The position numbers were made by a program, and so were the translations under genes. A DNA stretch of 64,000 nucleotides, taken from positions 352,136 through 416,135 of the forward strand of contig JBJBDC010000001.1 of assembly GCA_047285535.1 (NCBI GenBank), written 5' to 3'. The notes beneath the pieces are model-generated. The model was not told the origin of the DNA. It saw only the letters and a program-made list of their open reading frames with translations, and did no database searches. Shown piece by piece: positions 11,172-53,207 of this stretch. Origin of the DNA: Synechococcus sp. GTDB taxonomy: Bacteria > Cyanobacteriota > Cyanobacteriia > PCC-6307 > Cyanobiaceae. Numbering within the stretch: the first letter of the stretch is position 1; every line of letters starts with the position of its first letter.

Positions 11172-11248
<77 letters not shown>

Positions 11249-17264: not shown

Positions 17265-17321
17265 ATCCAGGTCCCCGTTCCGTGGCCTGGCAGTCTGCGC
17301 CTCACGGATGTGAGGTGAACG
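17265..17321 (-). ncRNA. Glutamine riboswitch class II (Downstream-peptide RNA motif)
   Basis: Minus strand CGTTCACCTCACATCCGTGAGGCGCAGACTGCCAGGCCACGGAACGGGGACCTGG, matching the CGUUCA...GCGCAG...GGAACGGGG pattern; directly 5' of a DUF4278 ORF, the motif's typical context. Confidence 0.85.
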
Positions 17322-17325
17322 TTGT

Positions 17326-27819: not shown

Positions 27820-28218
27820 CACTGGCAAGAAACTCTTGTTGCTGCCTTTTAGCTGCCTTCCAGGGTTGTCATCATGCTCGCATTCATTCTTGTGGGTATG
27901 CGCCTTGCCAGTTGTTCTTTTGAACGCAAAACCGCTCACCCCACGCCATTGAAGTTCACTCTTGACTGCACACAGCGCCTGTTGCCTGCATTCATGTTTG
28001 GACGCAGCCTGATCATCCCCATCAGTGCGCTGGCAGGACAAGCACTCGTACTACAGTTGCAGCTCCCTCATCCATTGCTTTTCTTCTGATTGCACAATCA
28101 GAACAGGCCGATACTGCAGCAGCTGGCCAACTGATGGCGTAGCACTCTTCTTGCCATCTTGACGGTCCCGATCTGGGCTGTGCTGTTCACGATGTTGGGA
28201 GAAAGACTCGAAATGTGA
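27820..28218 (+). pseudogene. AEC transporter pseudogene, C-terminal part
   Basis: Frameshifted pieces PSRVVIMLAFILVGMRL ... QALVLQ / VAAPSSIAFLLIAQ...AAAGQLMA* / STLLAILTVPIW, typical of AEC C-termini. Confidence 0.72.
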
Positions 28219-28747
28219 TATTTAATCTTGGTGTGCGGATTCTTCTGCGAGGAGGAAGTGCATGCATCCATAATCGTTGGCAATCAGGGTCCATTACAAG
28301 TAAATCCCCATGCGCTAGAGCTACTTCCTCTCGACGCTGAGTCATGCGATGACGAAATTGCAATGGTCGGCTTGCTCCGAACGAAAGAGATGCGATCGGA
28401 GACTTGGCATCAATCTCCTGTTCATCATCTGAATGCCAGCCCATTCGATCATCTCCATTGCGATAAAGATTGAACAAGCAGCCATTGAATCGGGCACCAC
28501 AGCTTTCATTCACACGCTCCAGCAATGGGATGAACCAGTCGGGCCAGCCTTTCCCGCGATGAACCACTCCGCTGTAGCGATAATTGACCGAGACATCCGC
28601 CAGGAAAGCAGAGAGTCTTGGGACAAGATGATATTGACCGTAGACACAAACTTGTGGTTGCTCCCAGGCGATCTGCTTATGACAAAGCTCAAACCAATCC
28701 TTTGATAGGTCAGGTTTGAGCCAGCCAATGCGATGCTCCCAATTCAT
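28187..28747 (-). CDS. AlkB-family 2OG-Fe(II) dioxygenase (ALKBH2/3-like)
   Basis: PRL, N.CL.NLYRNG.D.MGWHSDDE, IASLSFG, H.LP, R.NITFR. Upstream start at 28798 possible. Confidence 0.92.
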   Translation of the reverse strand: MNWEHRIGWLKPDLSKDWFELCHKQIAWEQPQVCVYGQYHLVPRLSAFLADVSVNYRYSGVVHRGKGWPDWFIPLLERVNESCGARFNGCLFNLYRNGDDRMGWHSDDEQEIDAKSPIASLSFGASRPLQFRHRMTQRREEVALAHGDLLVMDPDCQRLWMHALPPRRRIRTPRLNITFRVFLPTS

Positions 28748-29450
28748 GGATCCAAGTCGGTGCCCATAGCATTGATCAAGGCTCAATTCATTATTCATAG
28801 GCCCTTTGGATGACTGAATGTAGACATTGATTTTGATCTGTTGTGTTGATGGGTCCTTAAGTGACTTTTGTTTAATTTACTTTGATTAGAATTAGCGTTC
28901 ATATGCTCTTGTTTGCCTATGGAGTTTCAAGCAGCTCTGAACTGCTCGCAGCTGGTGTAATGCAAGATCCAATGGAGTGGAATCATATTAAGATTCTAGT
29001 TCATTATTAAAAGCATAAAGCGGAACTTGAGAATCACTGAGAAGCAGTTCAACAACCTCAAGGCCTAAACAAGGAGCAGCTACTAATACCAGTTTATTAA
29101 TTTTTCTTGGTCCCTGCGCAGTTCATCAGTTGAGCACCTTTGTAGATACAAATTCAATTCTGAGGAAGCCGACAATTTCCTGGTTTTGTTGAAAGCACAC
29201 GAATGAGCTTGCTGACAAGGCTGGGGAATCTGAAAATTTGATGAGAAGCGCATTAGGTGTCTCTATTGGCGCACTAGCGGCTTGCCACCATCATTTTTGA
29301 CATTCTCAGCCGAGACTCAACATTTTCCACAGGCGCAGGGAATCTGAAAAATCCATGAGAAGTCTGGTCTTTTGATGAGAGCTTGGTGAGAGAAGCTTGA
29401 TCGTTAGGGCGGTTTGGCCTAATAACGTTCCAAGCGGTTCAGGTGTATTG

Positions 29451-29750
29451 ATGCGCGGTAACCCTCTCTTTACAGCTTCAAGCCCTCAAGAGAGTGATGC
29501 GGCGCAATCCTTCACAGATGTAAGAGTCGGAGATTATGTGCTTGTACGTGAAGGACGGCATGTTCCCGTGATGACGGATTTTGATTGGTGGATGGGCCAA
29601 GTCGTCTTCTGTGAAAAAGCTTTGAAAGGTAATAACGTAAATACAATGCTTCAGATTTCAGATGTAGATGATGGTTGCATTCATTGGGTTAAGAGCGATG
29701 ATGTTATGCATGTTGTTCGTTCGTTAGATGGACTTGCATTAAATGTTTGA
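29451..29750 (+). CDS. DUF3104 family protein
   Basis: F.DV.VGD.V.V...DWWMGQV...Q..DVDDG.I.WV..D.V pattern. Confidence 0.8.
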   Translation: MRGNPLFTASSPQESDAAQSFTDVRVGDYVLVREGRHVPVMTDFDWWMGQVVFCEKALKGNNVNTMLQISDVDDGCIHWVKSDDVMHVVRSLDGLALNV

Positions 29751-30338
29751 TCACGCTTGATTCAGTCTTGTTATTGTGAAAATCATAGTCTTGAGAATTG
29801 TCTGCGCTTTAATCGCTTTTTTCTAATTATACTCTAGTCAGTTTTTATGGTTCTAATGGAATGTATTTCTGCATTTTATTTTCGTTTTGCGTGTTGTTGA
29901 CGAGCCTAAAACAGCTGATTGAGATCTGAAGGGATCGTTGTCTGGTTTTGGGAGCAGCACAATGTAGCTTTTTGCTCTTTGGCTTGTGATGAGGGAGTCA
30001 GGATTGGGCTTCTGTTTGAAAAAGATTGCTTTTGCTATCGATGGTGCTGACCTTCTTGCGGTCCATGTCAAATCAATTAATAATCAGAGGCTGTGATCAT
30101 GGTTCAACGAGTGAGTTCTCGTTATTTTTCCGTTTCGATTGGTTTCTGGCCTTAACCTTGCCGCTCAGTTTTTATTCTGATCAAAAGTGAAGTATTTTCA
30201 AGATATGGCTTACAAATGGATGGATACCGGTCGGCAAAGTGTGTTTTCACAAATAACTTCTAAAGTCACGAGGCATAAGCTGCCATTCCTTGAGATTGCA
30301 GTCTCTGACTGGATGTAGTAAAAGAGATTATATGCTCT

Positions 30339-31488
30339 ATGGTGTGAGTTATTAGACGTCGAAGCATTGATCCTTGTCGTTTCAATGGTGACTCTACTTA
30401 CGATGCCGGCCTTCACATCCCTCAGAAGCTGCGAGAGAGAGTTGGCCAAACACCTTGAGTACGTTCGTTAGAGACGACTGATCACTCCACAGCTCTCAGA
30501 TGCGATGGAACAGTCATACAATCCCTTGAGAAGGAGCTAGAAAGCCTTCTTAGTGTGGTCATTCTCTTCCAGTTCGTATCAACCTCTATAAACCCTCGAG
30601 TGAGCTAACCAATCTTGAAAAAGCCGAATCTCTTTGGGATTTTTTGAACTAAAGCGAAATAGCCAACATCATATAAATTTTTTTAATTCTATAAGGACTG
30701 ATAAAGACTTACCCATGACTTGGGATGAGCTTTTGAAATTGCGTATAGATTCTAGAAATAAACGTTAAGCCAGAGGATTATCTCAGTAATCAATCACTTC
30801 ATCAAAAGCTGCTGTAGGTAAAATCAAAGCCTATGACGAACCAACACAACTAACTCGTCAAGTAGTTCAAAGGTTTATTGGTGAATAGCAGACTTAACCG
30901 ATATCCACTGAGACACGATGTGGAGCCTTATCTGCATTGATAGAAGTCAGAATAAAGTATGATTGTCTTGACGAGAATCTATTCAAGAAGGGTGACTATA
31001 CAGCCGAAGTTTAGGTTGAAGATGAATGACTAGCTTGCATGGATGAGATGATTCGAGAATTTTATAGAGTCCACTCTTTTTGTTAGTCTTAACAGCAATG
31101 ATACCTGGTGAATATGCATCTCGAAGGCAGAAAGACTGATCTGTGCATAGTATGAGTATTGCTGATGAGCCTTAATAGATTGGAAAACTAAAAACATTAG
31201 CTCTATTAGAGGTGTTCCTAAACCAGATGGCGTTCAGTTAATGAATCTGGTGCAAAGCCGAGATCGATAATAGCTTACATGCTTTCTGATATTAATAATA
31301 GATGATCTGATAAAAGATTTACACCACTTAGTGGTAGGCAAAGCATATACAAACCAAGCAGAACAGTAGGATGTGATGCAAGCGTTATTGAGGCTATTGC
31401 TGGTCATGCTCAAAAGAGAGAATCAAGTCAGTACTGTTCATATCCCGATGAGGTTTTGGGTAGAGAAGTAAAGAAGACATTTGAGTAA
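30339..31488 (+). pseudogene. Degraded tyrosine recombinase/integrase
   Basis: N-terminal MV*VIRRR...LHIPQKLRERVGQTP*VRSLETTDHSTAL (DUF6538-like), internal WKTKNISSIRGVP, C-terminal FTPLSGRQS...GCDASVIEAIAGHA...SQY (decayed HxxR, GH and Y). Many stops and frameshifts. Confidence 0.72.
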
Positions 31489-31618
31489 GTAGAACAGAGT
31501 GTTGATGAGTGTTTGCACCAACCTTATTAATCCATCCAATTAAAAATATTTCCCCATTGCCTGCACGAAGGTTTGACAGCTTCTGACATGAGTCTTGTTA
31601 AATAGACTTAAAGTTTCT

Positions 31619-31999
31619 TTAGTTTGACGAGGCGCGAATACCAATTGAATTATTTGTTGGTTCCTTGTTTCCATCTTTCAAGCCTTCCAATTCCTGCCAT
31701 CGACAAATACCACAGAATTTCTCTGCATACTTATCCCTACGCATCTTACGTAAAGTAATACGTTCACAATGCAACCATACTTTGTAATTTCGCACTGATA
31801 ACCTATGCACAAAGTAAACTGCTGAGAGAGCTAATAGTCCAGCAATAAGGCACTCTTTGTGCACAGTTGAAGCGATTGCTGCGCTAAAGGCTATAACTAC
31901 AGCAACAAATTTAAACAGATCCTTATCAGGTTTTGGCGGCCTTCTTCTACTTATTTCAGTAATTAATTTCTCCATATCTAAGTTGTCCATTATATGCAA
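31619..31999 (-). CDS. Hypothetical membrane protein
   Basis: Two TM segments and a basic C-terminus with CGIC; AT-rich island context. Confidence 0.5.
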   Translation of the reverse strand: MHIMDNLDMEKLITEISRRRPPKPDKDLFKFVAVVIAFSAAIASTVHKECLIAGLLALSAVYFVHRLSVRNYKVWLHCERITLRKMRRDKYAEKFCGICRWQELEGLKDGNKEPTNNSIGIRASSN

Positions 32000-32687
32000 A
32001 AGCTTTGCTTTGCAAATATAATCGCGAAGATGCCAAGAGGATGATGAGAATTGAGTGAGAATTGCTTAAGTGTTCTTTAAGGTGATTGAACAGGTTTTGT
32101 AGTGGTAACAAAATGATTATTGATTAGATATGCCTTTATGCAGGCATTATTGTTGACTTTATTGCCCTATTCATCAATACACGGCTATTGAAGCCCCTAA
32201 TCCTTTCAACGAGGATAGAATTACTAAGAATGAGGTTATCAAGCTTCTTCTAAAGGGTAATGATCAACACACCAGTCGTTGAACCTATTGCTCTGAGGGA
32301 TGCTCGCCCAAAGGTTGAAAAACTACAGCTTGATTCATAGCTGGTTTCGAGAGTCTATAAAGTCCTGAAAACCTTGTGTATATTTGCTTTCTTGATTCAG
32401 TATCTCTGATTCTGTTTTCAGACATGCAGTATTCACTTGCATCCTGTTTGTTATATTTAATATCTTGGTTTTTCGTCTATTATTGATGATTTATCGAGAA
32501 ACTTGCTGAACTGAAACCTTCATCTGCTGGCAATCCATGGAATGCGCAACAGATGAAGAAGAAGGTTAAGAGACAACCTTCAAAACCTAAGTTTTCAAAA
32601 CCTGTCTTTACTTCTGATAGCTCTGATCATGAGCTGACTTCTAATTGAAATAGAAAAACATGCAGAGATTCTGTCAATCACAGCGTA

Positions 32688-32870
32688 TCAATGAGATTGT
32701 TTTACCTTTTCATTCTGTTGTTGTTTTATGCCACCCTTCATCATTCCATCGTATCTTTGCCATTCCTTTTGTGTTCCAACAAAGTTTTGTCCTTCTGGCG
32801 GGTTGGTAAATCCTTGAGAACAACCACTCATTAGTAAGACAACTAATGCAAGTAAGTTGAAGGTTTTCAC
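32688..32870 (-). CDS. Putative small lipoprotein
   Basis: MKTFNLLALVVLLMSG-C signal peptide II/lipobox. Confidence 0.55.
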   Translation of the reverse strand: MKTFNLLALVVLLMSGCSQGFTNPPEGQNFVGTQKEWQRYDGMMKGGIKQQQNEKVKQSH

Positions 32871-33546
32871 AGAATCAATTTGGTTTCTGATGCTTCTATT
32901 CTCTCACTTGCCTAGAATTTGGCAGAAATTTCTGAAGCCTAATCTCTAACTGGCGCTCACTCGCCGCCCTCCTTCGGCGGTCTTGATCTGCGGTCACCGC
33001 GCAAGTTGAAAACTAGATCATACGCACTAGTTCTTGCGGCGCCTTGCGTCCGCGCTTTCAGATCTGATTTTTTCAGCAGTGCGTCAGAGCTTCTACCGAT
33101 TCCACGCGATTCAAATCTTTTTGAATCATGTTGAGCAGTCACAGGCTCTGTCAGTACGTCCAATCCTCTACATCTTTGGATACTGGTTTGATGTTGAGCT
33201 GTAGTGCTAGCAAAAGATCTGGTGAGCTACGGATACCAATCGTCTCTCTCTCTGTCAACAGCCTTGATGGTGCTGGTTAACGCTGGACTGGAGCCAGAGC
33301 TATCCCCAGCACCTGCTCTTAGTGCTTCATCTGTTCCAGACGATGGAGAGCCTGTTTTACTCTTAAGCAGTTGTCAGCCTTGAAGACAGCAGGGATTCTC
33401 TAATGTGAGCAAGGGTGAAGTATTTTTACAATGTGAGTTTTGCTTCTCCCTGTTGATGCTGAAAATGCTTCGTATGACTGGAATCCTTTCGTAACGAGGC
33501 ATAACATTAACGAAAACATCAAGGCAACACCCCATACATTCGATGC

Positions 33547-33849
33547 ATGGGAGCTCGCATTACTGAATCGGAATTTCTCAAAAGGGCGCGAAAGCGCTTT
33601 GGTGAGCACTTCGATTATTCAGAAATCAAGTACCGCAGCTACAAAAGCCCGGTCAAAATTCGCTGTAATAAGCATCCAGTTCAGCTGATCAGTATTACTC
33701 CTGAGAAGCATCTTCAAACCACTGGGGGATGTCGGCATTGCCTTAGAGAGAGGCGAATAGCAGCACTGGAAAGGGAACTCAATCGCGATTCTGCTCAGCG
33801 GAAGGTTCAAACTCCAACTCAACCCAATCATTGTGCACGCCAGTTCTAA
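33547..33849 (+). CDS. Zn-binding DUF723-like protein
   Basis: T..EF..RA...FG..FDYS...Y......V.IRC.KH...P.KHL....GC..C pattern. Confidence 0.7.
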   Translation: MGARITESEFLKRARKRFGEHFDYSEIKYRSYKSPVKIRCNKHPVQLISITPEKHLQTTGGCRHCLRERRIAALERELNRDSAQRKVQTPTQPNHCARQF

Positions 33850-34166
33850 GAAAAACGCGCACAGCTAACAGCCTTAATACAGCAAGTGATTTCAGCCCTT
33901 ATTGCATGAAAAGGTCACCATGCTCTGAGAACTGATTGTTGGCCGTCAACGCATCATCACCCCCTCAGCCAGGCTGGTGATCAGAGCAATCGGTGAGCCA
34001 GCTAAGGCCCACGTGTGTTGGTGGGGGTGAGGCTTAGATCTTGATGTGATGAGTGGTTGCCACTGCGCTAGAGAAACCTAATCAATCAATGAAGCTGACC
34101 ATTATGCACTCTTGAAAACGCCAGGATTCCTATGGCTTGTAGCTTCGTTGATGGCACAAATGGTCA

Positions 34167-34316
34167 TTAAGGCATCAGGTTTTGCTGAGAAGACCTTGGA
34201 GCCGGATCGCTTAATCCATGGAGAGGCTTTTGATCCATAAGGTGAATCGTCGTTCCACATGCGAGCACAAAAACGACGGAGAGAAGCGAGTTGGAAAAAA
34301 GATGGAGCAACGACAT
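34167..34316 (-). CDS. Possible small single-TM protein
   Basis: MSLLHLFSNSLLSVVFVLACG... preceded by GAGGG. Confidence 0.35.
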   Translation of the reverse strand: MSLLHLFSNSLLSVVFVLACGTTIHLMDQKPLHGLSDPAPRSSQQNLMP

Positions 34317-34531
34317 AACCTGACCCTCTTTATTGCTATTGAAAACCATTTGCAATAATACTGCAATAAGTGGATTTGCTTATTCTTTCTGGCCGTCAAG
34401 TCTGGAGGATCGCTTTAAGGCTTGTCTATGAGACGCATGACGCCCGAAGGCGCTCTGCTCTGCTGATTGGCGCTGAGATCCCTCTGGTCTGGTTCGGGTA
34501 TGGAGTCGCCTGGGCTCAAGGAAAAGTCTCT

Positions 34532-34726
34532 CTATGACTGATGAACGATGAAGCGAGCTCTGGCTAACGTTTGATCCAGGTCTCTCAGCTCTACCTCCAT
34601 CACGTCCACCTTCAGTTCGGATTCCATCCTTTGATTGAGTTCTTCAATCACTGCCACTTGCTGCTCCTGAGCCACCTCAGAACGCGCAGTTTGTACTGCT
34701 CCTTGCGCTGTGCGACGAGCCTCCAC
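34532..34726 (-). pseudogene. Coiled-coil gene fragment, parent unknown
   Basis: GC-richer coding-like stretch (EARRTAQGAVQTARSEVAQEQQVAVIEELNQRME) with no convincing start. Confidence 0.3.
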
Positions 34727-34790
34727 CAGCCTGTCTCGATGTCCTGGATCTGTTGTTCAGTTGTGTCCGATGTGGTGGTTAGTCAGCAAT

Positions 34791-34811
34791 AAAAGACTCC
34801 CTTAGGGAGCC
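34791..34811 (-). terminator. Intrinsic terminator
   Basis: Minus strand GGCTCCC-taa-GGGAGTC-TTTT. Confidence 0.7.
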
Positions 34812-34813
34812 AG

Positions 34814-34881
34814 AGCCTTGAGTAGGAATCGAACCTCCCCTTCACCATCAGGTGCTCGCCAGATTGATCCGATATCAAGAA
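34814..34881 (-). ncRNA. tRNA-like cloverleaf element (pseudo-tRNA or tRNA mimic)
   Basis: Acceptor-like TCTTGA/TCAAGG, arms CGGA/TCTG and CACC/GGTG, T-arm GGAGG-TTCGATT-CCTAC, followed by a terminator. Confidence 0.45.
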
Positions 34882-34892
34882 ATGCACCATGC

Positions 34893-35531
34893 TCACAATT
34901 GGGTGGCGCTAAAAATCGCATAACAAACCATGAGTAGAGCAAGAATCGAGGCGCTCCCTGCCAGATTGAAACGGTGTGATTCTGTTTGCAGCCATCCCTC
35001 ATAGACCTTGGCCAGCAGCGGAACGAGGAGCCATCCGGTGACGGCCACGGTGATTGCAGTGCTGATCAACATGTTGAGGGCCAAGGGCAGTTCTCCCAAG
35101 CTGTCAGCGCTGATCAAGATGAGCAGCATCACTGATGGGTAGAGCGCCAGCCAAATCAACAAATTCATTTTCCATATGGGTGGTGGATCCGGTAGCTGCG
35201 ACGTCAGCCAAAGATCAAACGAAGGCTTGTGAACTCGGGATTGAAATTGATTCACAAAGTTGGCTTCTGCTTGGTTGAGTAAACGTCTGCGAATGGGGCT
35301 ATCAATCCAAGCCAGGCATGATTGAACATCACTAAAGCGCAACCTCGAATTGCATTCGACCAAGCCATCATCGAGTTGGCGATAGCTTGTCTCTTGATCA
35401 ATGAATCCTTTCGATTGCAAGGCAGCTTGCTTCATTGATGCTTGCAGCTTTTTGCACTCAGCAAGATCTGACTGGCGAACCAGAGCCTGGATCAAGTAGT
35501 CAAATTGCTCGGATGATTCGCTGCCAGTCAT
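34893..35531 (-). CDS. ABM (antibiotic biosynthesis monooxygenase)-like domain membrane protein
   Basis: GF....RF......AW..SP.R followed by the PP.WK..L..W..LYP membrane domain. Confidence 0.7.
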   Translation of the reverse strand: MTGSESSEQFDYLIQALVRQSDLAECKKLQASMKQAALQSKGFIDQETSYRQLDDGLVECNSRLRFSDVQSCLAWIDSPIRRRLLNQAEANFVNQFQSRVHKPSFDLWLTSQLPDPPPIWKMNLLIWLALYPSVMLLILISADSLGELPLALNMLISTAITVAVTGWLLVPLLAKVYEGWLQTESHRFNLAGSASILALLMVCYAIFSATQL

Positions 35532-42582: not shown

Positions 42583-43737
42583 TCAACCCACTCCTGATAG
42601 AGAGCGAATCATGAGCTGAATATCGTCCCATTGCGCTTCGATCGATTCAGTTAGCGCAAATTGAACTAATGCTCTGTCCAAATTATGAGATGGTCGCTCC
42701 GTTCGAAAATAACGATCGCCGTCTAAATAGTCAGTTAAAAACCGCAATCCAAGCTCAAATGGAATGAGACGTATGGAGTCTGGTAAATAATAGAAATCCT
42801 CATTCGAGAGAAATGAGCGCCCCATTGTCAGATAGCCTTCAAGAATGGCACGACAGAGATTGAGATCGAATGTGACCGCATCAATCTCGAGGGTCTCTTC
42901 GCCAAGAGAATTACAGCAGGAACGCAGACAATCTCCGATGTCATAGTGAACCAAGCCGGGCTTGACTGTATCAAGGTCAATCAACCCAACTGCACGTCCG
43001 CTGATCTCATCAAGCATGACATTATTGATCTTTGGATCACCATGAATTGGCCGTCTTTTGAGCTCGCCTCGATCACTAGCGGCCTCCAACACATCAACAC
43101 CATCTCGGCGTTTGTCAACAAATTCTATCGCTTTTTTTAGGCGCCCATCGTTGCATAGTCTACTTGAAATAACACCAGAGTCTCGACTCATTACCTTGTC
43201 ATAGTGATCGAGATAAACCGGTGTGATGTGAAAACCTTCCAATGTATCTGCAAGATCAGTGATTGGTAAATCACTGATGAGGTGATGGAACATGCCCAAT
43301 CCATATCCCACCTCCCTGGCATGTTCCACGCCACTGATCACATCACTGGTGGTGGCGGCTCCGATATAGGAGATTGATCGCCAAAATTCTCCGTTATGTT
43401 CCACCCAATGCCCCTCGGTGTCTCGAGTGGGGAGTACCTTTGGAATTTCCCAACGACGGCCTGCCAATTCAGGGGGGGCAGAGGCCAGACGTTGTTGTAC
43501 ATGTGTGCCCAGTGCAAGCAAATTACGCATGACCAGCTCGGGCTTTTCAAAGACTTGTGTATTGAGACGCTGCATGACAAAAGCCTGACGATCCGCATTC
43601 GCAGCCAAGGTGACTAGAAACGTTTCGTTGACATTTCCGGATCCGAGCATGTCAATCGAGGTGATTTGCTCTGGTGGGTGAAACAGTCCTGCAATCGCAT
43701 CCAGGGATGGGTCAAATCTGGAAATGGCGGCCGCCAT
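42583..43737 (-). CDS. APH/choline-kinase-fold phosphotransferase (N-acetylhexosamine 1-kinase-like)
   Basis: G.GNVNETF, QRLN..VF, FH.TP, Brenner motif HGDPKINN, IDLDT, ELGLRFLTDYL.GD.YF. Confidence 0.85.
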   Translation of the reverse strand: MAAAISRFDPSLDAIAGLFHPPEQITSIDMLGSGNVNETFLVTLAANADRQAFVMQRLNTQVFEKPELVMRNLLALGTHVQQRLASAPPELAGRRWEIPKVLPTRDTEGHWVEHNGEFWRSISYIGAATTSDVISGVEHAREVGYGLGMFHHLISDLPITDLADTLEGFHITPVYLDHYDKVMSRDSGVISSRLCNDGRLKKAIEFVDKRRDGVDVLEAASDRGELKRRPIHGDPKINNVMLDEISGRAVGLIDLDTVKPGLVHYDIGDCLRSCCNSLGEETLEIDAVTFDLNLCRAILEGYLTMGRSFLSNEDFYYLPDSIRLIPFELGLRFLTDYLDGDRYFRTERPSHNLDRALVQFALTESIEAQWDDIQLMIRSLSGVG

Positions 43738-43858
43738 AACGAATCGCATGAGTCTCAGCTCGGAACAATGCCGGGTCTCTGGCGTTATGCCACCGCTGAG
43801 TGTGCGGAAAATCAGCCGGGAAGCGGCAGCATGGGATTCGACGATCCGTTTAGCCCCG

Positions 43859-45055
43859 GTGCCGCGCTTTCTTCACACTGCTGACTGGCAAATCGGCAAG
43901 CCTTATCACTGGATCGAGGATCCTCAAAAGCGGGCCCGTCTTCAGCAAGAACGGTTGAACGCGGTTTCACGTATCGCGCTAGCAGCAAGCGAACAGAATC
44001 TTGATGCAGTGATGGTTGCGGGTGATCTATTTGATTCGAGCACTGTTGCTACGGCCATTGTGATGGAAGTGATGGAAGCGATCGCTTCTATTCCTTGCCC
44101 TGTCATTGTGATTCCTGGAAACCATGACCATGGCGGCGCTGGCGGCATCTGGCAGCGCCGAGATGTCCAACGTCAGCGGCAAGAGCGCTGCCCCAATTTG
44201 CAGCTTTTACTGCAACCTGAGCCGCAGCTTCTTGGCGGAATGGTGCTGCTTCCTTGTCCGTTGTTACGACAAAGGGACATGCGCAGCCCAGCAGACTGGC
44301 TGGAATCACTGGATTGGTCCTGCTTACCGAACGATCAGCCCAGGGTCGTTCTCGCTCATGGCTCCGTACAGGGCTTCGGCTCAGAAGGTCAAGTCAATCA
44401 ATTGCATCTCAATCGTTGGCCTGAAGACCAGGTGGACTACATCGCTTTGGGAGATTGGCATGCCCTCACCAAGCTGAATGCACGCGCTTGGTACAGCGGA
44501 ACCCCGGAAACAGATCGTTTCCCGATACGCCATGACGACCAACGAGCGCAAGCACTTCTAGTGACACTGGAAAGACAACAGATACCGGAGGTCACACCAG
44601 TGTCTACAGGAGCCATGCAATGGCACAGCCTCAAAGCCGAGGTCAGCAGTCATGCAGATCTTCAGTATTTAAAAAAAGAGATCGAATCCTGTGTCAGACG
44701 AAGGGTAGGGAAAGACCTCTTGAGGCTTGAGTTAAGCGGTCAGCTTTCCTTTGAAAATTATCAACATTTGCTGCAGCACTTGCAGGATTTGGAGCAACAA
44801 CTTCTCCACTTGAGAATTCGCGGCATGCCTCAGCGCAGACCAGAATCTGGAGAATTTCGAGGGTTTTTGCAACGGGGCGACGACGCACCCTTGATCCAGT
44901 GCATCACGGAACAGCTTGCCGTTGATCTGGAACACAACGTCGACTCAATGAGCGAAGAAGCACAACCTGAACAGGCCATGCTCGAACTCGCCATGCTGGA
45001 ACTCCAGAGGATCGTGATCGAAGAAGCAACAGATCAGGAGGCTTCATGCGGCTGA
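43859..45055 (+). CDS. Mre11/SbcD/YhaO-like metallophosphoesterase nuclease
   Basis: FLHTADWQIG, AGDLFD, PGNHD, LAHG, YIALGDWH, YSGTPE. Start placed at GTG 43859. Confidence 0.92.
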   Translation: MPRFLHTADWQIGKPYHWIEDPQKRARLQQERLNAVSRIALAASEQNLDAVMVAGDLFDSSTVATAIVMEVMEAIASIPCPVIVIPGNHDHGGAGGIWQRRDVQRQRQERCPNLQLLLQPEPQLLGGMVLLPCPLLRQRDMRSPADWLESLDWSCLPNDQPRVVLAHGSVQGFGSEGQVNQLHLNRWPEDQVDYIALGDWHALTKLNARAWYSGTPETDRFPIRHDDQRAQALLVTLERQQIPEVTPVSTGAMQWHSLKAEVSSHADLQYLKKEIESCVRRRVGKDLLRLELSGQLSFENYQHLLQHLQDLEQQLLHLRIRGMPQRRPESGEFRGFLQRGDDAPLIQCITEQLAVDLEHNVDSMSEEAQPEQAMLELAMLELQRIVIEEATDQEASCG

Positions 45056-47697
45056 TTCGCTGTCGATTAGTCAGTGTTCGCAGGCATCAGGAGCTTGAGT
45101 TGGAGTTTGATCCAGGGATCACGTTGATTGGAGGCGACAACGAGAGTGGCAAAAGCTCCTTGGTCGAGGCTTTGCACCGAACACTGTTTGTGCGTGCCGC
45201 CTCAAGTGGGATGGCATCGCAGGATTTGCGCTCCCACATCCATGCAGGACATCCACAAATCAAGATTGAATTCGAATCCAAAGACCATGACTGGACCCTC
45301 CTCAAACGCTTTAGCGGTCCAAGTGGCACGACTCAATTAGCAGCCAAGGGGCAACCGGCTTTGATTGGATCAGCAGCGGAGGATCAACTGTCGGATCTCC
45401 TCGGAGTCAATGAGATCCTCACGAGCCGACAAGTCAATAAAACACTTCCAAGCCGCTGGGCCCATCTCTGGGTGAAGCAGGGGGATTCTGGCCTTAACTT
45501 GCTCAGCCTTGGCCACGATTATTATGACCTCGACAGCTTGATTGAGTGCCTGGAGCAACAGGCTGAGCAATCGCTGCAGTCACCTTTGGATCAGAGGGTT
45601 TACAACCAACTTGAACGCTTGGTTTCCGAGAGCCTGAGTACCAGAGGAGTCCGCCAGCAAAGTGTGCTCTGGAAGCGTCAAGAGGCTTTAAAAGCAGCAA
45701 AGCAACAACACTTTGAAGCCCTCGAGCAGCTCCATGGTTTTGAGGCGTCCTGTCAGGAGCTCGATTCTATTGAGCAGGAGCTAAAAGATTTGGAACAGGA
45801 GCGTTTACCAGAGATCCGAAGGCAACGGAAAGACTTGAGTCAGTTGCAGGAAGCGCTTCAACGACTAAGACCTCTTACCCTTCAATATCAACACCTCGAG
45901 CGGAGTTTCAAGTCCCTCAGGCACATTGCAGCAGATTGCACTACCTATGAAAAAAAACTGAATCTGCTTGAGCAAGAACTTAAAGATCGTGAACAGAATT
46001 GCATCCTTGAAAAAAATCAATTAATTGATTCATATCAGCGAACAGAACAACTAGAGCACAATCGACAAGTCCTAGAAGAAAAGGGTCTGATGCTCAGGCA
46101 AATCAAGGACCGTAATGAAGTCCAGCGGCGCATTCAAATCTGCAGTCATCAAGACAATGAGCGCCAACGTTTGATTGAACAGCAACGCAACATCAATATG
46201 GAACTCACTGCTTTTCAAGGAGGTAGCAACGAAGAACTTCTTGAATTGACCAAAACCAGAGATGAACTTCGTGCCGTGGCAATTCGTATTGAGAGCATGG
46301 CATCTCAAGTCTTGGTGGAATCAACAGATCAACCTATTTACATTGATGGCTCAACTCTGCAGCAAGGTGATGTCTGTGAGCAAGCAGGCATCTTTCGAAT
46401 CGATGTTGGAGACTCTGTACGACTGAAGATCAGTCCTGGTGAAGGAACAGGACTCTCTTCTCTTCAGGAGAAACAAAGGAGACTGCAAAAAATACTCAAA
46501 ACAGGTTTGCAGCATTGGAAATCAAGCTCGATCGAGGAAGCCCAACAGCGGAACGAACGACGTCAGCACCTTCACCAGCAACGAGCGTTGGTTAAGGCTC
46601 AATTAACTCAGCTGAATGCTTCTCCAGAGACTGCTGACATGAACCTCAATGATTTACACACCCGGCTGGATGAACTCAACAAAGTTATTTCCTCTAACAG
46701 TTTTAAATCAGATACAGGTCTTGAAGCAGAGTTGGAACAATGCAGGCAGGATTACCGTGAGTTGAAAGAACAAACTAAGACCCATCAAAAGTATGTTCAC
46801 AGTCTAGAAGTTCAACAGAAAGACCAGCAGCAGCAATGGCAGCAAAAGCGCATTCATCAAGAGCGACTTAAGGCGGAACAAGAACAGCGATATAACCAAC
46901 GTCAATTGATTGAAAAAGAGGCAGGATCGCAAGCGCAACTCGAGCAATCAATGCAAGATTTGATATCGCAAAAAATCAAGTTGGAGGAATACATTCAGGT
47001 ACTTCTCCTGCCAATTCCAACCCAATGGCAATCTGATCCAAAAGCAGCTTTACTGACCCTTGATCGCCTGGAACACCAGTTCAATGAGCAACGGTTGGAC
47101 CTGGTAAGTCGACGTGGTGCTTTGTATGAACGTTGCGATTCTCTTGGGCAAAGTGATCTTCACTCAGCTGTATCTGAGGCCTCTGTCAAACTCGAATTGG
47201 CAGAGCAGGCAGAACAGCGAGAAGCTCTGTTGGTTCGCGCCCGGAGCTATCTTCTGGAACGATTTCAGAAAGCTCGAAGTGATCTGTCTCAGCGCTATTC
47301 TGCTCCTTTAAAAAATAACATTGATGAGGTTCTTAAGCCTTTATTGAAGGACACGTCGCAAGAATGTTCCCTCACCTATGACGAGCGAAATGGGCTGCAA
47401 AAGCTTGCTCTGCTTCGTGAAGGAACTCTTTTTGAATTTCACCAGCTCAGTGGTGGAATGAAAGAACAATTGAATGCAGCTGTACGCATTGCGATTGCTG
47501 ACACTCTGAAAGAAAGGCATGATGGCTGTGTTCCATTGCTTTTTGATGATGCTTTCACAAACACCGATGCGAAACGTTTGCACGGTGTGTTGGCAATGCT
47601 TCAGAAAGCGGTACAAAGGGGATTGCAGGTGATTATCTTGAGCTGTGATCCAGAGCCTTACAAGGCTATCGCTAATAAGGTGATTATGATTGATTAA
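45046..47697 (+). CDS. Rad50/SbcC/YhaN-like SMC-fold ATPase
   Basis: Walker A GDNESGKS, long coiled coil, signature LSGGMKEQ, Walker B LLFDDAF; overlaps the nuclease gene. Confidence 0.9.
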   Translation: MRLIRCRLVSVRRHQELELEFDPGITLIGGDNESGKSSLVEALHRTLFVRAASSGMASQDLRSHIHAGHPQIKIEFESKDHDWTLLKRFSGPSGTTQLAAKGQPALIGSAAEDQLSDLLGVNEILTSRQVNKTLPSRWAHLWVKQGDSGLNLLSLGHDYYDLDSLIECLEQQAEQSLQSPLDQRVYNQLERLVSESLSTRGVRQQSVLWKRQEALKAAKQQHFEALEQLHGFEASCQELDSIEQELKDLEQERLPEIRRQRKDLSQLQEALQRLRPLTLQYQHLERSFKSLRHIAADCTTYEKKLNLLEQELKDREQNCILEKNQLIDSYQRTEQLEHNRQVLEEKGLMLRQIKDRNEVQRRIQICSHQDNERQRLIEQQRNINMELTAFQGGSNEELLELTKTRDELRAVAIRIESMASQVLVESTDQPIYIDGSTLQQGDVCEQAGIFRIDVGDSVRLKISPGEGTGLSSLQEKQRRLQKILKTGLQHWKSSSIEEAQQRNERRQHLHQQRALVKAQLTQLNASPETADMNLNDLHTRLDELNKVISSNSFKSDTGLEAELEQCRQDYRELKEQTKTHQKYVHSLEVQQKDQQQQWQQKRIHQERLKAEQEQRYNQRQLIEKEAGSQAQLEQSMQDLISQKIKLEEYIQVLLLPIPTQWQSDPKAALLTLDRLEHQFNEQRLDLVSRRGALYERCDSLGQSDLHSAVSEASVKLELAEQAEQREALLVRARSYLLERFQKARSDLSQRYSAPLKNNIDEVLKPLLKDTSQECSLTYDERNGLQKLALLREGTLFEFHQLSGGMKEQLNAAVRIAIADTLKERHDGCVPLLFDDAFTNTDAKRLHGVLAMLQKAVQRGLQVIILSCDPEPYKAIANKVIMID

Positions 47698-49226
47698 AGT
47701 GCGTTTTCAATCACATTCATGGCTCGTAGATAGGCAGGTGGATCATTATCAACCTCCATATCCTCCAGGCCTGAATCTCCTCGAATCAGGCGGCGGGCAT
47801 TATCTGCAATGACAGCATTCACTAATAAATCCATCGCTTCAGGTTGTTCAAGATTCTGAATAGCTTCGGCGTATCGACGGCTGTGGGTGGGGCGAACAGA
47901 TTCCTGACAATAAGTTGATAATTGGCGGCTATCAGTCATCACTGAAAAAGCAACTTCTTTGGTAGCTTGTCGCCCATAGATTGCCATATAGAGCAAATTA
48001 ATCATTGACGCATCGTGCACAGGGATTGAATACTTACGCGCAATCTGTGGCCAGTAACGTAGAGCCTTCAATCCTTCTAAGCCACCTTTGCGTAAGCCTG
48101 CTGACTCGCACCAGGACTCCAATTCTTCCATGCTGTGTGGACATCGATTTTCGGTGTGCATCAGGTTTGAGAGCACCTGACCAACCTGAAAGTTTCTCGT
48201 GGGTGTACCCGAAACAGGCATCATCATGCTGCCTCGAACATCGGCGACCATCGCCGTGAGTTGGGCAAATGTATGGTCACGAACTTTTTCCATGTCCCCT
48301 TCGCGCACAAGAGCAGCTTCAATTCTGGGAACGCCGTAACCAAGTTCTGTGAGTGAAAACGGCTGCCGGTTGTAAAGTCGTTGACGATCGCGTCTCGCCA
48401 TCGATACTGTGGCAGCTTGATCTAAACATTGATCAAGAAGAAGCGTGAGCAACGTTGGCAGTACTCCAGGATTGTCCTGGTGAAAGGAGTAACCAAAGCC
48501 TGCAAAAACAGAAGCCATATTTTTCGCGGCCTTGATGTACTGGCCTTCCACGTTGTGCACTCCCGGTGAAACCTGGATGTTGGGCGAGAGTCGGTCGAGC
48601 AAACGCGCACCCAGTAAGGCCGTGAGTGCATTGGGATGACAGAAATTTGCTGTGAAACTGTCGAGAGGATTTCGCAATGCTCCATGACGATGAAAACCTG
48701 AGAAAAAAGCCAAATTTGGCTCTTTCTCACAAAGAACGTAAGACTCATTGGCGATGTGGTCATGACCAAAAGACCCAGCTAGACAGGCAATGACGACTTG
48801 CTCTCTTCCTAGCTCCTGACGCAACCTGCAGGCCTGACGCAGATCGTCTTCGACGTGATTGCTATTGGCACTGAGGATCACCAGCTCGCAGCGCAGTAAA
48901 AGGTCAGCTAATTCATTGGGTACTGGCTTACCGCCGCGCCGATGGGTTGCCATCGCCTCAATCGTTGCCACATGGACTTCATCCATGCCTTGAATCACAT
49001 CATCTGGGAACGCGCCAAGCAAGTTCCGACCTGGTCGCGGAGCCAGTAAGAGGTGCCCAGCGCTATTTTTTTGCATTGCGCAGTTGTAGGCAAGAGAGGC
49101 GGGATAGAGCCCAACGCTGTAGAGCCCAACCTTTCCTTTTTCCAACTCCAGGATGCGGAGGTTGATGGCCTCCCGGTCAAGAGACGGGGAGAAAAATGAA
49201 TTGCTCTTCAGCACCGTGTTCATCAT
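47694..49226 (-). CDS. Conserved hypothetical protein; probable divergent GpsA-like NAD(P)H-dependent dehydrogenase
   Basis: 510-aa ORF with motifs paralleling GpsA in order (see findings). Confidence 0.6.
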   Translation of the reverse strand: MMNTVLKSNSFFSPSLDREAINLRILELEKGKVGLYSVGLYPASLAYNCAMQKNSAGHLLLAPRPGRNLLGAFPDDVIQGMDEVHVATIEAMATHRRGGKPVPNELADLLLRCELVILSANSNHVEDDLRQACRLRQELGREQVVIACLAGSFGHDHIANESYVLCEKEPNLAFFSGFHRHGALRNPLDSFTANFCHPNALTALLGARLLDRLSPNIQVSPGVHNVEGQYIKAAKNMASVFAGFGYSFHQDNPGVLPTLLTLLLDQCLDQAATVSMARRDRQRLYNRQPFSLTELGYGVPRIEAALVREGDMEKVRDHTFAQLTAMVADVRGSMMMPVSGTPTRNFQVGQVLSNLMHTENRCPHSMEELESWCESAGLRKGGLEGLKALRYWPQIARKYSIPVHDASMINLLYMAIYGRQATKEVAFSVMTDSRQLSTYCQESVRPTHSRRYAEAIQNLEQPEAMDLLVNAVIADNARRLIRGDSGLEDMEVDNDPPAYLRAMNVIENAL

Positions 49227-50071
49227 CCCACCTCGTTGCTGACCTCAAGACTAATGAAGGACTTGCAGTGGATGAATCGAAAGCCTAGGGATGATGTCAT
49301 GGTTGCTCCCGATCTTATGAGATCGTCGACTGATTCAACGTTTAACTTCCGCTGCTTCAATCGAATTAGCAATAGCACTTTCTAGTACATGGCACAGCTT
49401 AATTTCGCCTTCCAAGCCACTTGAATATTGATCTGATGATTGTTATTCAAGCTTTTGATTCAGCAGCGATTTATAGCTGAATAATGAAGTCAATGGCATG
49501 ACCCAAAGCCAAGCCGTTAAGGTGAATGCTTTTGAAGGTAAGACTAGATATAAAGCTGATGTGATGCCTTGAAATTTGTATTCAGTCGATCAGTGTTCTG
49601 GTGTCCATCAGTTTTTTCTTGCAATAAGATGCTACGGAAAAACTTGAAGGTCAATTCATGGTTGGCAAGTCATTGTTGACTTCCAACTCTACGTGATAAT
49701 TGTTTGCTTCATTCACAGTTTTGAGTCAGGGGGCTTCCTCATCTTATGACCTTGCTCGAGAGCCAATCACAAAGTGATCATTCCTTTGCGGATCTGACTG
49801 AAGGGTTGATGATTGTGTCATTCAGCTCTACCTGGCCTCTTTACCTAAGTCCTGTCCGTGAATTGATCTGGATCCCTATCCAAGACGACGTACTATCGAG
49901 AATCCTGGTCAGACAATGCCCTACTTTTCAAGCATCCAGACGGCAAAGTTGAGTTTTCTTGCTCCTCAGAAGCATTTCAGACCATCAGTTCATCATTAAA
50001 ATCTGCGCTCTTACCGTGGCGTTCTTGAGCGGTGTTCCTCTCCACTGTCCAATAAGTACTTTTTTGCACCC

Positions 50072-51292
50072 ATGACACCACTAAGCCTTGATGCACTCCG
50101 TGACGAAATGATTGGGGCGAATGACTTGCTGATTGTGCAGGATCTCGATGGTGTTTGCATGCCTCTCGTGAAAGATCCGCTCACAAGGAGTCTTCGTGCT
50201 GACTATGTGCATGCAGTATCCGTCATGCAAAACCACTTCTGCGTGCTCACGAATGGGGAGCATGAGGGCAGGCGTGGTGTTAATCGATTGGTTGAAAAGG
50301 CCTTAGGTGACGATCAATTGGCACAACAGAAGGGCCTCTATCTTCCAGGATTAGCAGCAGGTGGAGTTCAATTTCAGGATCGATTCGGAACGGTCTCACA
50401 TCCTGGCGTCAGCGAAGAGGAAATGAGTTTTCTCGAATCTGTTCCAAAGCAGATGGAAGAACTCTTGCGCTTGAAGTTAAATGAGATCATGCCTGAGCTC
50501 CAAGGCTCTGCTCTTGATGAAGAACTGAATCTTGCAATTCTTGATACTCAAGTTTCCCCGACCATCAATCTAAATAGTCTCTTCAGTATGATCAATGGCG
50601 ATGTGCAACGCCAAAGACAGCTGCAATTGATGTTGTCTGATCTGATGGTATCCATTATCAATGTTGCGACATCGTCGGGATTGCCAAGCTCATTTTTTCT
50701 GCATGTGGCACCCAATCTTGGATGTGACTCCTTCGGCCAAGAAAGGATTAAACCTGCAGAGATTGGGGATGTAGGTACAACTGATATTCAATTTATGCTG
50801 AGAGGCGCCATTAAAGAGGTGGGCCTACTTGTTCTGATCAATCAACACATTGCTCAAAGGACTGGTAAAGCACCGCTTGGTGACACTTTTAATGTGCGCT
50901 CCGCTCCCCATACGCATCAAGCCCTCCTGGAACTCTGTCATCGGCATATTGACCGCAGGGACATGCCCATGCTGGTCGGAGTTGGTGACACCGTGACATC
51001 CACCCCTTGTCCATCGGGAGAAGGGTGGCTGCGAGGCGGAAGTGATAGAGGATTTCTCACCTTGCTGCAAGAACTGAGCGCAAGTTATGACTGCCCTGGT
51101 CGCGTTGTTCTTGTTGATAGCAGTCATGGTGAAGTTGATCGTCCGAGTCTGAGTGACGACAATCTTGTGGGCATTAGCGATCCGCAGGATCCACTGCGCT
51201 TTGACTGCCTGGTCAAGGGAGGTCCGCAGGATTATGTCGAATGGTTTAAAACTCTGGCTGATCAAATAAATGGGTTCGCATGCAACTCATGA
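50072..51292 (+). CDS. stpA: Glucosylglycerol 3-phosphatase (StpA/GgpP)
   Basis: LLIVQDLDGVCM.LVKDPLTR, LTNGEHEG.RGVNR, GTTD.QFML, GVGDTVTS, RGGSDRGFL. Confidence 0.93.
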   Translation: MTPLSLDALRDEMIGANDLLIVQDLDGVCMPLVKDPLTRSLRADYVHAVSVMQNHFCVLTNGEHEGRRGVNRLVEKALGDDQLAQQKGLYLPGLAAGGVQFQDRFGTVSHPGVSEEEMSFLESVPKQMEELLRLKLNEIMPELQGSALDEELNLAILDTQVSPTINLNSLFSMINGDVQRQRQLQLMLSDLMVSIINVATSSGLPSSFFLHVAPNLGCDSFGQERIKPAEIGDVGTTDIQFMLRGAIKEVGLLVLINQHIAQRTGKAPLGDTFNVRSAPHTHQALLELCHRHIDRRDMPMLVGVGDTVTSTPCPSGEGWLRGGSDRGFLTLLQELSASYDCPGRVVLVDSSHGEVDRPSLSDDNLVGISDPQDPLRFDCLVKGGPQDYVEWFKTLADQINGFACNS

Positions 51293-52220: not shown

Positions 52221-53207
52221 ATGCATTTCACCCTGGCTTCCACTGAGCACCAGCTTTCCCAGAGCGCCAGCATCTTTCCGGCGATGAACCGTGAAGAACT
52301 TCAAACGCTTCAAGTCAACCTTGGCTATCGCTGCAATCAGAGTTGCAGTCACTGTCATGTCAACGCAGGGCCATGGCGAAATGAAATGATGCCTAAGGAT
52401 CAGATTGAACTCATTCCTAGGGTGCTTCAGGCTCTTGGCCTCAACTGCTTGGATCTAACTGGCGGTGCTCCGGAACTGCATCCTTATTTCAAATCCTTAG
52501 TACGTCAGGCAAGAAGACTTGGGGTCCAAGTCATTGATCGCTGTAATCTCACGATCCTCACTGAACCAGAACAGGAAGGTTTAGCTGAATTTTTGGCCCA
52601 TGAAGAAGTCAAAGTGGTGGCCTCTCTTCCATGTTTTGAACAAGACCAGGTGGATCGCCAACGAGGTTTTGGAGTGTTTCAGCGCAGCATTGCTGCTCTT
52701 CGCTCTCTCAATGAACTTGGTTATGCAATGCCTAACAGCAAGTTGGAGCTGGATTTAGTTTTTAATCCAGCAGGAACTCAGCTACCTCCAGCGCAAGCAG
52801 AATTGGAGGTCTTGTATCGCAAAAATCTACTTCAAAATTACGGCATTCATTTTACTAGGTTGTTAACCATCACAAATATGCCGATACAGAGATTCGCCCA
52901 AACGTTAGAAGCTCTAGGAGAATTAGAATCGTATCAATCTCTGTTGCGCAAGGCTCATCGTGAGGAGAATCTTAGTTCTGTGATGTGTAAAAGTCTAATT
53001 AGTGTTGGATGGACAGGCACCTTATTTGACTGCGACTTTAATCAGCAATTGGATATCCCTGTGACTTCAGGACCTAGGACTTTGAGTGAGTTACTTAATC
53101 AGAGTGATCGACTCAATGGGCTACCAATCGCAGTCGCATCACATTGTTATGGATGTACCGCCGGTGGAGGCTCCAGCTGCAACGGAGCACTCAATCCAGT
53201 TCAGTGA
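52221..53207 (+). CDS. arsS: Radical SAM protein, ArsS/DUF3641 family
   Basis: LQVNLGYRCNQSCSHCHV (CxxxCxxC), DLTGGAPE, DRCNLT, DCDFNQ, HCYGCTAGGGSSC. Confidence 0.88.
   Translation: MHFTLASTEHQLSQSASIFPAMNREELQTLQVNLGYRCNQSCSHCHVNAGPWRNEMMPKDQIELIPRVLQALGLNCLDLTGGAPELHPYFKSLVRQARRLGVQVIDRCNLTILTEPEQEGLAEFLAHEEVKVVASLPCFEQDQVDRQRGFGVFQRSIAALRSLNELGYAMPNSKLELDLVFNPAGTQLPPAQAELEVLYRKNLLQNYGIHFTRLLTITNMPIQRFAQTLEALGELESYQSLLRKAHREENLSSVMCKSLISVGWTGTLFDCDFNQQLDIPVTSGPRTLSELLNQSDRLNGLPIAVASHCYGCTAGGGSSCNGALNPVQ

Follow-up and report, generated by a model that had tools for sequence, protein, structure and literature searches.

A stretch of 64,000 nucleotides from Synechococcus sp. (contig JBJBDC010000001.1, positions 352,136 to 416,135), referred to below as the window, contains an open reading frame (ORF) of 510 amino acids, ORF510, that diverges from stpA, the gene of glucosylglycerol 3-phosphatase. 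A preliminary description of positions 47694..51292, judged by eye from the sequence, had drawn attention to this pair and to a remote similarity of ORF510 with GpsA, the bacterial glycerol-3-phosphate dehydrogenase (GPDH) that uses nicotinamide adenine dinucleotide (phosphate), NAD(P). The present report is its computational follow-up. The pair and the spacer that separates it were delimited as follows:

47694..49226, minus strand: ORF510, diverged protein of the GpsA/GPD fold, 510 amino acids, with an ATG start and its stop codon at 47694-47696
49227..50071, no strand: divergent spacer between ORF510 and stpA, 845 bp
50072..51292, plus strand: stpA/ggpP, glucosylglycerol 3-phosphatase, matched over its full length by TIGR02399 (E = 1.2e-168) and PF09506 (E = 2.7e-168)

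StpA scored 561 bits with TIGR02399, against a cut-off of 365.5, and its residues 12-398 covered positions 2-387 of the 389 in the model. ORF510 does face away from a bona fide stpA, as had been described, and the four motifs said to follow each other in GpsA order were all present in its translation:

ORF510 residues 33-46: VGLYSVGLYPASLA
ORF510 residues 226-243: VEGQYIKAAKNMASVFAG
ORF510 residues 328-349: ADV..S....TRNFQVG
ORF510 residues 383-388: LEGLKA

ORF510 is a real, conserved gene. A search of 5.8 billion proteins returned 636 matches; the 120 that were listed are 494-532 residues long, 71-93% identical to ORF510, and, where they have a name, always 'hypothetical' or 'uncharacterised'. 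Their named hosts are marine Synechococcus, Cyanobium, Prochlorococcus, Leptolyngbya, Aphanothece, Spirulinaceae and a dinoflagellate cyanobiont. The mean column identity of a 19-sequence alignment is 77%. Among 1.84 billion representatives of clusters at 50% identity, the family amounts to a single full-length representative, the other matches being fragments, four apparently frameshifted translations (P0258, P0188, P0250 and P0236) and three true distant relatives, P0147 (676 amino acids), P0152 (662 amino acids) and P0259 (429 amino acids), at 23-28% identity. P0147 and P0152, both of about 670 residues, contain large insertions; their contigs measure 8985 and 12265 bases respectively, and that of P0259 1.87 Mb. 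A search seeded with P0147 returned only P0147 and P0152, indicating that the wider family is very small. A separate search for longer, fused forms of ORF510 yielded none, which is weak evidence.

Some homologues carry discordant taxonomic names. Five contigs from metagenome-assembled genomes (L016, L018, L044, L063 and L023) are labelled Gammaproteobacteria or Salipiger yet encode a Synechococcus-type ORF510 in full picocyanobacterial synteny, and their ORF510 sequences nest within Synechococcus clades on the tree. These labels, like the name 'Planctomycetaceae TMED241' found among the homologues, are probably binning errors.

Relationship to glycerol-3-phosphate dehydrogenases

The homology of ORF510 to GpsA was assessed with three alignments: a narrow profile of the cyanobacterial ORF510 family (A1), a profile of the same family with the three distant relatives added (A2), and 13 annotated GpsA sequences (A3), comprising gpsA of Escherichia coli K-12 and 12 sequences found by tblastn in a plasmid collection. 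Aligned by hhalign, A2 and A3 matched with a probability of 95.9% (E = 5.2e-9, 321 columns), from residues 32 to 434 of ORF510 and from 7 to 332 of E. coli GpsA, and the alignment reproduced the register drawn by eye for all four motifs. Compared with the single E. coli GpsA sequence, the family profiles gave probabilities of only 1.5-4.1%, though in the same register. P0147 alone among the distant relatives matched PF01210, with E = 0.009 and 16.4 bits, below the cut-off of 23.1.

Predicted structures pointed to the same fold. A first model, built from 19 close sequences, was poor, with a predicted local distance difference test score (pLDDT) of 61.6, and GPDHs were already top-ranked when it was submitted to Foldseek. 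The second model, built from 44 sequences including the three distant relatives, reached a pLDDT of 82.8 and a predicted template-modelling (TM) score of 0.82. Foldseek ranks 1-25 of this model against the PDB were occupied exclusively by NAD-dependent glycerol-3-phosphate dehydrogenases, with E between 1.1e-8 and 1.1e-5 and target-normalised TM scores of 0.58-0.71, the highest (0.71) being that of 1txg. They comprise human GPD1, GPD1L, enzymes of Leishmania, Plasmodium and Archaeoglobus, yeast GPD1 (4fgw), the Dunaliella enzyme (6iuy), Coxiella GpsA (3k96) and Thermotoga 1z82. The next folds, 6-phosphogluconate dehydrogenase, pyrroline-5-carboxylate reductase and ketopantoate reductase, followed with TM scores of 0.27-0.44. 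Here again, in the ESM Atlas, the nearest named clusters besides those of ORF510 itself all carry PF01210 and PF07479, with scores of 0.91-0.92. Taken together, three independent approaches, profile-profile alignment, Foldseek ranking and language-model neighbours, make the GPDH fold of ORF510 and its full-length profile homology to GpsA well supported, and the remote similarity first noticed by eye has found its match in both fold and profile. We describe ORF510 as a cyanobacteria-restricted, so far unannotated and strongly diverged member of the NAD(P)-dependent GPDH fold, of the GpsA/GPD1 type; solved GPDHs are at most 11-15% identical to it. The protein is divided as follows:

48561..49133, minus strand: N-terminal Rossmann-like domain, residues ~32-222, alternating strands and helices in the models, aligned to GpsA 7-183
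47925..48554, minus strand: C-terminal helical substrate domain, residues ~225-434, with K235-N236, D329, S333, T343-R344-N345 and E384-G385
47697..47924, minus strand: family-specific C-terminal extension, residues 435-510 (YCQESVRPTHSRRY, NAVIADNARR, PAYL..MNVIE), beyond the end of the GpsA alignment

ORF510 shares with bacterial GpsA (PF01210 and PF07479; E. coli b3608, Coxiella 3k96, Thermotoga 1z82) the two-domain fold and the order of motifs, over nearly the whole length of GpsA. It differs in being about 170 residues longer and in escaping the hidden Markov models (HMMs) of the family. The additional residues form an insertion at ~263-318 in the substrate domain, of which residues 300-314 have a pLDDT below 50, and the 435-510 tail, strongly conserved within the ORF510 family and modelled with partly low confidence. 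Equivalences with E. coli GpsA, taken from the register of the A2/A3 alignment, show that the Lys-Asn, Asp, Arg-Asn and Glu-Gly positions and the Arg after strand 2 are kept, and that four other sites are changed:

E. coli K195-N196, ORF510 K235-N236: kept, invariant including the distant relatives
E. coli D248, ORF510 D329: kept, invariant including the distant relatives
E. coli S258-R259-N260, ORF510 T343-R344-N345: kept, invariant including the distant relatives
E. coli G264, ORF510 G349: kept, invariant including the distant relatives
E. coli E285-G286, ORF510 E384-G385: kept, invariant including the distant relatives
Arg of the GpsA 'W.R' after strand 2, ORF510 R64: kept
E. coli G12-x-G14-x-x-G17, ORF510 S37-x-G39-x-x-P42: changed
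E. coli K110 (invariant in A3), ORF510 G151: changed
E. coli D184 (invariant), ORF510 H224: changed
GpsA 'SGP..A.E', invariant SGFHRHGALR in the ORF510 family: changed

K235-N236, D329, S333, T343-R344-N345 and E384-G385 are invariant in the 44 sequences, the three relatives at 23-28% identity included, and the kept residues align with GpsA positions that are invariant or nearly so in A3. E. coli T252 is matched by P337 in the hhalign register; moving the 4-residue gap to where the preliminary description has it brings T252 onto the invariant S333 instead. From work on human GPD1, we take K195-N196 to have a catalytic role, and K195/N196, D248 and R259/N260 to form the site of dihydroxyacetone phosphate (DHAP) and glycerol-3-phosphate (G3P); the Asp...Thr...Ser-Arg-Asn segment (D248, T252, S258-R259-N260) is presumably a phosphate clamp. 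With these roles assigned, ORF510 seems to have retained the ligand site and to show changes in the cofactor site and in some of the catalytic machinery. Within the dinucleotide loop, S37, G39, Y41 and P42 are invariant in 19 cyanobacterial sequences; the distant relatives read NPGPYG or GIAPYS. These relatives keep a Lys at the position of Gly151, within AKG in P0147 and P0152 and within AKS in P0259. The S37-x-G39-x-x-P42 loop in place of GxGxxG fits the altered cofactor binding that had been suggested for ORF510.

Gene neighbourhoods and the supply of glycerol-3-phosphate

A scan of 185,579 species genomes yielded 410 stretches encoding an ORF510 relative, and the best 80 loci were kept. 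stpA was found within the flank in 49 of these 80, always upstream and divergent, and directly adjacent in 17. The gap between the two genes ranges from 52 to 7275 bp and accommodates genes for a glutathione S-transferase (GST), a PQ-loop/SemiSWEET-like protein, a Rieske oxygenase and others. Subcluster-5.1 insertions comprise the PQ-loop/SemiSWEET-like sugar-transporter gene (7922-8461 in L010, and eight other loci) and the GST gene; a gene is also inserted between stpA and ORF510 at 1611-2276 in the subcluster-5.1 locus L037, and in others. Traces of the GST gene were sought in the spacer of the window, with a negative result. This 845-bp spacer had no blastn match in the 80 related loci, including those whose ORF510 is 92-93% identical, and a consensus scan revealed no promoter-like site within it. 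stpA is missing from the flank in 31 of the 80 loci, 8 of them with less than 1.5 kb of upstream sequence and 13 with at least 9 kb.

In five of the 80 loci, all from one clade (L079 from Synechococcus MIT S9452, L056, L064, L065 and L066), ORF510 is held within an island of glucosylglycerol genes, ggpS-ggtBCDA/stpA/glpK:

L079 2946-21355: glucosylglycerol island of Synechococcus MIT S9452

One side of ORF510 carries glpK, a TreS-like GH13 gene and stpA, and on the other side an ABC ATPase gene (UgpC/MalK-like), two permease genes, a binding-protein gene and ggpS (TIGR02398, E = 1.6e-227) converge on its 3' end; the L056 contig ends inside the transporter genes. The TreS-like gene beside stpA matches TIGR02456 with E = 2e-179, below the cut-off. 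The L064 island includes an MscS channel gene; htpG is found past ggpS. In PMC9948718, gghA, the known glucosylglycerol hydrolase gene, is reported absent from all Synechococcus genomes examined, which leaves glucosylglycerol turnover unexplained there; the GH13 gene could for this reason bear on that turnover. In the window, none of the 39 ORFs of at least 150 amino acids scanned for protein families is a ggpS or ggt gene.

Other arrangements were seen outside these lineages. ORF510 follows a UgpA/MalF-type permease gene on the same strand in three non-picocyanobacterial loci (L042, L055 and L067). We considered this permease as an orthologue of the ggtC-like permease of L079 and dropped the idea, as the two are only 32-36% identical. 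The ergothioneine genes egtC, egtB and egtD stand directly upstream of the permease-ORF510 pair (4649-7834 in L042, 4887-8083 in L055). In five subcluster-5.2-type loci (L071, L072, L074, L076 and L077), among them that of Cyanobium CH-040 (L076), ORF510 diverges within tens of bases from a gene for a sodium:solute symporter. Other loci have no informative neighbour, e.g. a Crp-type regulator in L049 and L054. On a Prochlorococcus contig of 35% G+C (L078), ORF510 occurs together with stpA.

A quick maximum-likelihood tree resolved five clades, and adjacency to stpA is found in the four that are marine picocyanobacterial, indicating essentially one inherited arrangement. The subcluster-5.2-type Cyanobium sequences (WH5701 and CH-040) group on this tree with the Leptolyngbya- and Spirulinaceae-type sequences and not with the other picocyanobacteria, with a support of 98 in the Shimodaira-Hasegawa-like approximate likelihood ratio test; transfer or the position of the root could account for this grouping. 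Neither of the two findings that would have refuted the preliminary description emerged: ORF510 matches GPDHs in fold and profile, and it is linked to glucosylglycerol genes, by the divergent stpA in 49 and by the island in 5 of the 80 loci. Its functional proposal is supported in part, stpA being adjacent only in marine picocyanobacteria, a group with a generally conserved gene order.

Published gene inventories bear on where these organisms obtain their G3P. According to the legend of Figure 6 in PMC6753628, the genes glpD, glpK and gpsA co-localise with ggpS in other cyanobacteria, and module 338 of PMC5862535 has GgpS co-occurring in 23 strains with GlpD, an enzyme dependent on flavin adenine dinucleotide (FAD), with operon-like proximity in 7. 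For strain WH8102, PMC2874817 gives ggpP as SYNW0860 and places ggpS (SYNW1281) in a predicted operon with ggtCDA; we found no paper mentioning the tags beside ggpP (SYNW0858, 0859, 0861 and 0862). PMC9361551 compares 132 cluster-5 genomes, and the portions of it used here list ggpS/ggpP, glpK and the symporter CK_00001517 as marine or brackish genes, occurring in freshwater only in ATX 6A2 and CH-040. By its scoring, canonical gpsA (CK_00002942) occurs in 65 of the 67 freshwater strains, in the 11 brackish strains of subcluster 5.2 and in the two marine strains of subcluster 5.3, and Table S10 records it for none of the subcluster-5.1 strains, 46 marine and 6 brackish. Its authors state that marine strains have the FAD-dependent glpA instead and that hypothetical proteins may do the missing job; no step making G3P from DHAP in subcluster 5.1 is named in these portions. 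Among the ORF510 homologues, four are named from subcluster-5.1 strains without gpsA (HK01-R, RS9909, A15-127 and WH7803). The Cyanorak cluster of ORF510 itself was not found in the rows of the PMC9361551 matrix around ggpP, glpA/glpK and ggpS, and its presence in CH-040, one of the two freshwater strains with ggpSP, in WH5701 and in subcluster-5.1 strains is anecdotal. In our own data, neither the window nor the 80 loci, which are only short stretches of each genome, yielded a canonical gpsA in a tblastn search with E. coli GpsA.

Proposed function and competing explanations

Judging from its sequence, models and gene contexts, the most economical interpretation, which we consider an even call, is that ORF510 is a non-canonical DHAP reductase supplying G3P to glucosylglycerol synthesis, possibly also to lipids. 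The kept Lys-Asn, Asp, Arg-Asn and Glu-Gly residues would bind a phosphorylated ligand of three carbons, and the protein would reduce DHAP to sn-glycerol-3-phosphate, with NAD(P)H held by the S-x-G-x-x-P loop and Arg64. The G3P so formed would feed GgpS, whose product is dephosphorylated to glucosylglycerol by StpA, encoded next door. Given that GgpS uses up G3P and that StpA completes the route, ORF510 may have arisen or been retained together with the glucosylglycerol module. In subcluster-5.1 marine Synechococcus its activity could also supply membrane-lipid synthesis: with gpsA scored absent from that subcluster, ORF510 may be a general G3P-forming enzyme and not only an osmolyte accessory. 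In a stronger version, which we hold to be possible but doubtful, subcluster-5.1 marine Synechococcus would depend on ORF510 as their sole, essential DHAP reductase, as might those Prochlorococcus lineages in which the gene occurs. A GPDH remodelled to work with a non-glycine loop would then have taken the place of canonical gpsA and would supply all sn-glycerol-3-phosphate, for lipids and glucosylglycerol alike.

This physiological logic is that of osmoregulatory eukaryotic GPDHs, which make G3P for the production of glycerol as an osmolyte under salt stress. Two of them, yeast GPD1 (4fgw) and DsGPDH of Dunaliella salina (6iuy), were retrieved as structural matches of ORF510, at ranks 19 and 5 respectively. 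Both are canonical GPDHs with GxGxxG; the osmolyte served by ORF510 would be glucosylglycerol, via GgpS and StpA, and ORF510 is not fused to a phosphatase domain. The enzymes otherwise found with ggpS are GlpD or GlpA together with GlpK, co-localised or co-occurring with it elsewhere, and glpK likewise stands beside ORF510 in the L079 island. GlpD and GlpA differ from ORF510 in fold and cofactor, being FAD-dependent where ORF510 has an NAD(P)-type fold, and they normally run in the oxidative direction.

Several observations weigh against an ORF510 that acts as a DHAP reductase in glucosylglycerol synthesis. At the level of homology, Pfam and NCBIfam searches of ORF510 gave no match to PF01210, PF07479 or a GpsA model even at E up to 1, phmmer and hmmsearch runs on PDB chain sequences brought up no GPDH, and the narrow profile A1 aligned with A3 at only 38% (E = 3.3e-4). 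At the level of residues, the first and third glycines are missing from the dinucleotide loop (S37-V-G39-L-Y41-P42), K110 of E. coli has become Gly151 within the motif LAGSF, and the invariant SGFHRHGALR stands where GpsA has 'SGP..A.E', a replacement suggesting that the chemistry or the ligand may differ. As for gene order, up to 7 ORFs separate stpA from ORF510 in relatives, stpA was found in none of the 13 loci outside marine picocyanobacteria that have at least 9 kb of upstream flank, its adjacency represents one evolutionary event in marine picocyanobacteria, and the genes on the other side of ORF510 (metA, metY and four more) are syntenic too. Finally, all marine strains have GlpK and the FAD-dependent GlpA according to PMC9361551, and ORF510 coexists in WH5701 and CH-040 with the canonical gpsA recorded in the table of that paper, indicating that it is not a simple replacement. 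ORF510 is homologous to GpsA; as it stays below the curated HMM cut-offs of that family and lacks its GxGxxG and second lysine, we prefer to treat it as founding a new, unannotated family of the GPDH fold.

Two other explanations are sustained by the changed loop, the missing second lysine and the His/Arg-rich segment. ORF510 could be a pseudo-dehydrogenase that uses its GPDH fold to bind G3P, DHAP or glucosylglycerol-phosphate and that regulates or scaffolds glucosylglycerol synthesis or transport without hydride transfer, its suggested partners being GgpS, StpA, and a Ggt-type transporter or symporter. The residues conserved throughout the family, distant relatives included, are indeed mainly those of the substrate site, no glycine position among the three of the loop is invariant across the branches (SVGLYP, NPGPYG, GIAPYS), and Gly151 occupies the place of a Lys invariant in GpsA. 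The family-specific insertion and the conserved 75-residue tail, an identity of 71-93% among listed homologues from several cyanobacterial groups, as expected of many constrained surfaces, and the repeated vicinity of transporter genes agree with such a role. We nevertheless judge it unlikely. A clear loss of nucleotide binding is not apparent, as Arg64 aligns with the conserved Arg of GpsA (W.R) and Tyr41 matches the aromatic position of the loop; cyanobacterial members also retain the middle glycine of that loop, and no partner is known. Alternatively, an active dehydrogenase of this fold might take part in the turnover of compatible solutes with a different phosphorylated substrate, for example a glycosylated glycerol phosphate or the phosphate of another triose or of a polyol. 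Residues of the phosphate clamp are kept, yet FHRHGALR, an invariant segment rich in His and Arg, replaces the one that lines the nicotinamide/substrate pocket in GpsA, and there is no second Lys; the turnover left unexplained by the reported absence of gghA from Synechococcus (PMC9948718) would offer such an enzyme a place, and the TreS-like GH13 gene and glpK share the L079 island with ORF510. All of the best 25 structural matches are G3P dehydrogenases, however, the residues that ORF510 retains correspond to the DHAP/G3P site, and no result points to a specific alternative substrate, which makes this explanation improbable to us.

It might also be that the neighbourhood is an inherited gene order devoid of functional meaning and that ORF510 has an unrelated housekeeping role. 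The adjacency to stpA maps only to the marine picocyanobacterial clades, where the other flanking genes are equally syntenic; the spacer varies among loci, that of the window being unique, and the 19 non-picocyanobacterial or subcluster-5.2-type loci have varied neighbours (Crp regulator, purS/purQ, HtrA-like). We nonetheless regard a meaningless neighbourhood as very improbable, because four arrangements in four clades all involve genes of compatible solutes or sugar-type transport, namely stpA, the ggpS-ggt island, the UgpA/MalF-type permease and a symporter with the phyletic pattern of ggpS, and because the fold points to the chemistry of glycerol phosphate, the substrate of GgpS.

Marine Synechococcus are among the main primary producers of the ocean, and the synthesis of all membrane lipids, like that of glucosylglycerol, requires G3P. 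As a putative DHAP reductase, ORF510 offers a concrete and cheaply testable candidate for the step from DHAP to G3P in subcluster 5.1. Should it prove to be that enzyme, a gap in metabolic models would be closed and a gene would be added to the salt-acclimation module by which marine and freshwater picocyanobacteria differ; as the sole source of G3P, it would serve some of the most abundant phototrophs of the ocean. Activity of ORF510 would mean that a GPDH can function with an S-x-G-x-x-P loop and one conserved lysine fewer; an inactive ORF510 would represent a new pseudoenzyme that senses a ligand and is involved in the control of osmolytes.

Other features of the window

The remaining features identified in the window are the following:

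43724-47697, plus strand: SbcD-like (443 amino acids, Metallophos) and SbcC/Rad50-like (883 amino acids) genes, overlapping each other and converging on ORF510
52221-53207, plus strand: ArsS, arsenosugar-biosynthesis radical SAM protein (TIGR04167, E = 5.5e-130), downstream of stpA
17266-17324, minus strand: Glutamine-II riboswitch aptamer (RF01704, 55 bits for a gathering score of 33)
11172-11245, plus strand: tRNA

The SbcD/SbcC-like pair overlaps the 3' end of ORF510 by 4 bases at the stop codons. It sits between ORF510 and the conserved downstream block in some lineages only, each gene being present in 28 of 81 records, and may be an inserted module. arsS is syntenic in 39 of the 81 records. 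The region at ~28000-34900 has a low G+C content (0.39-0.45, compared to ~0.49-0.54 around it) and contains no ORF of at least 150 amino acids between 28798 and 34893; it could represent a genomic island, or else a region in decay.

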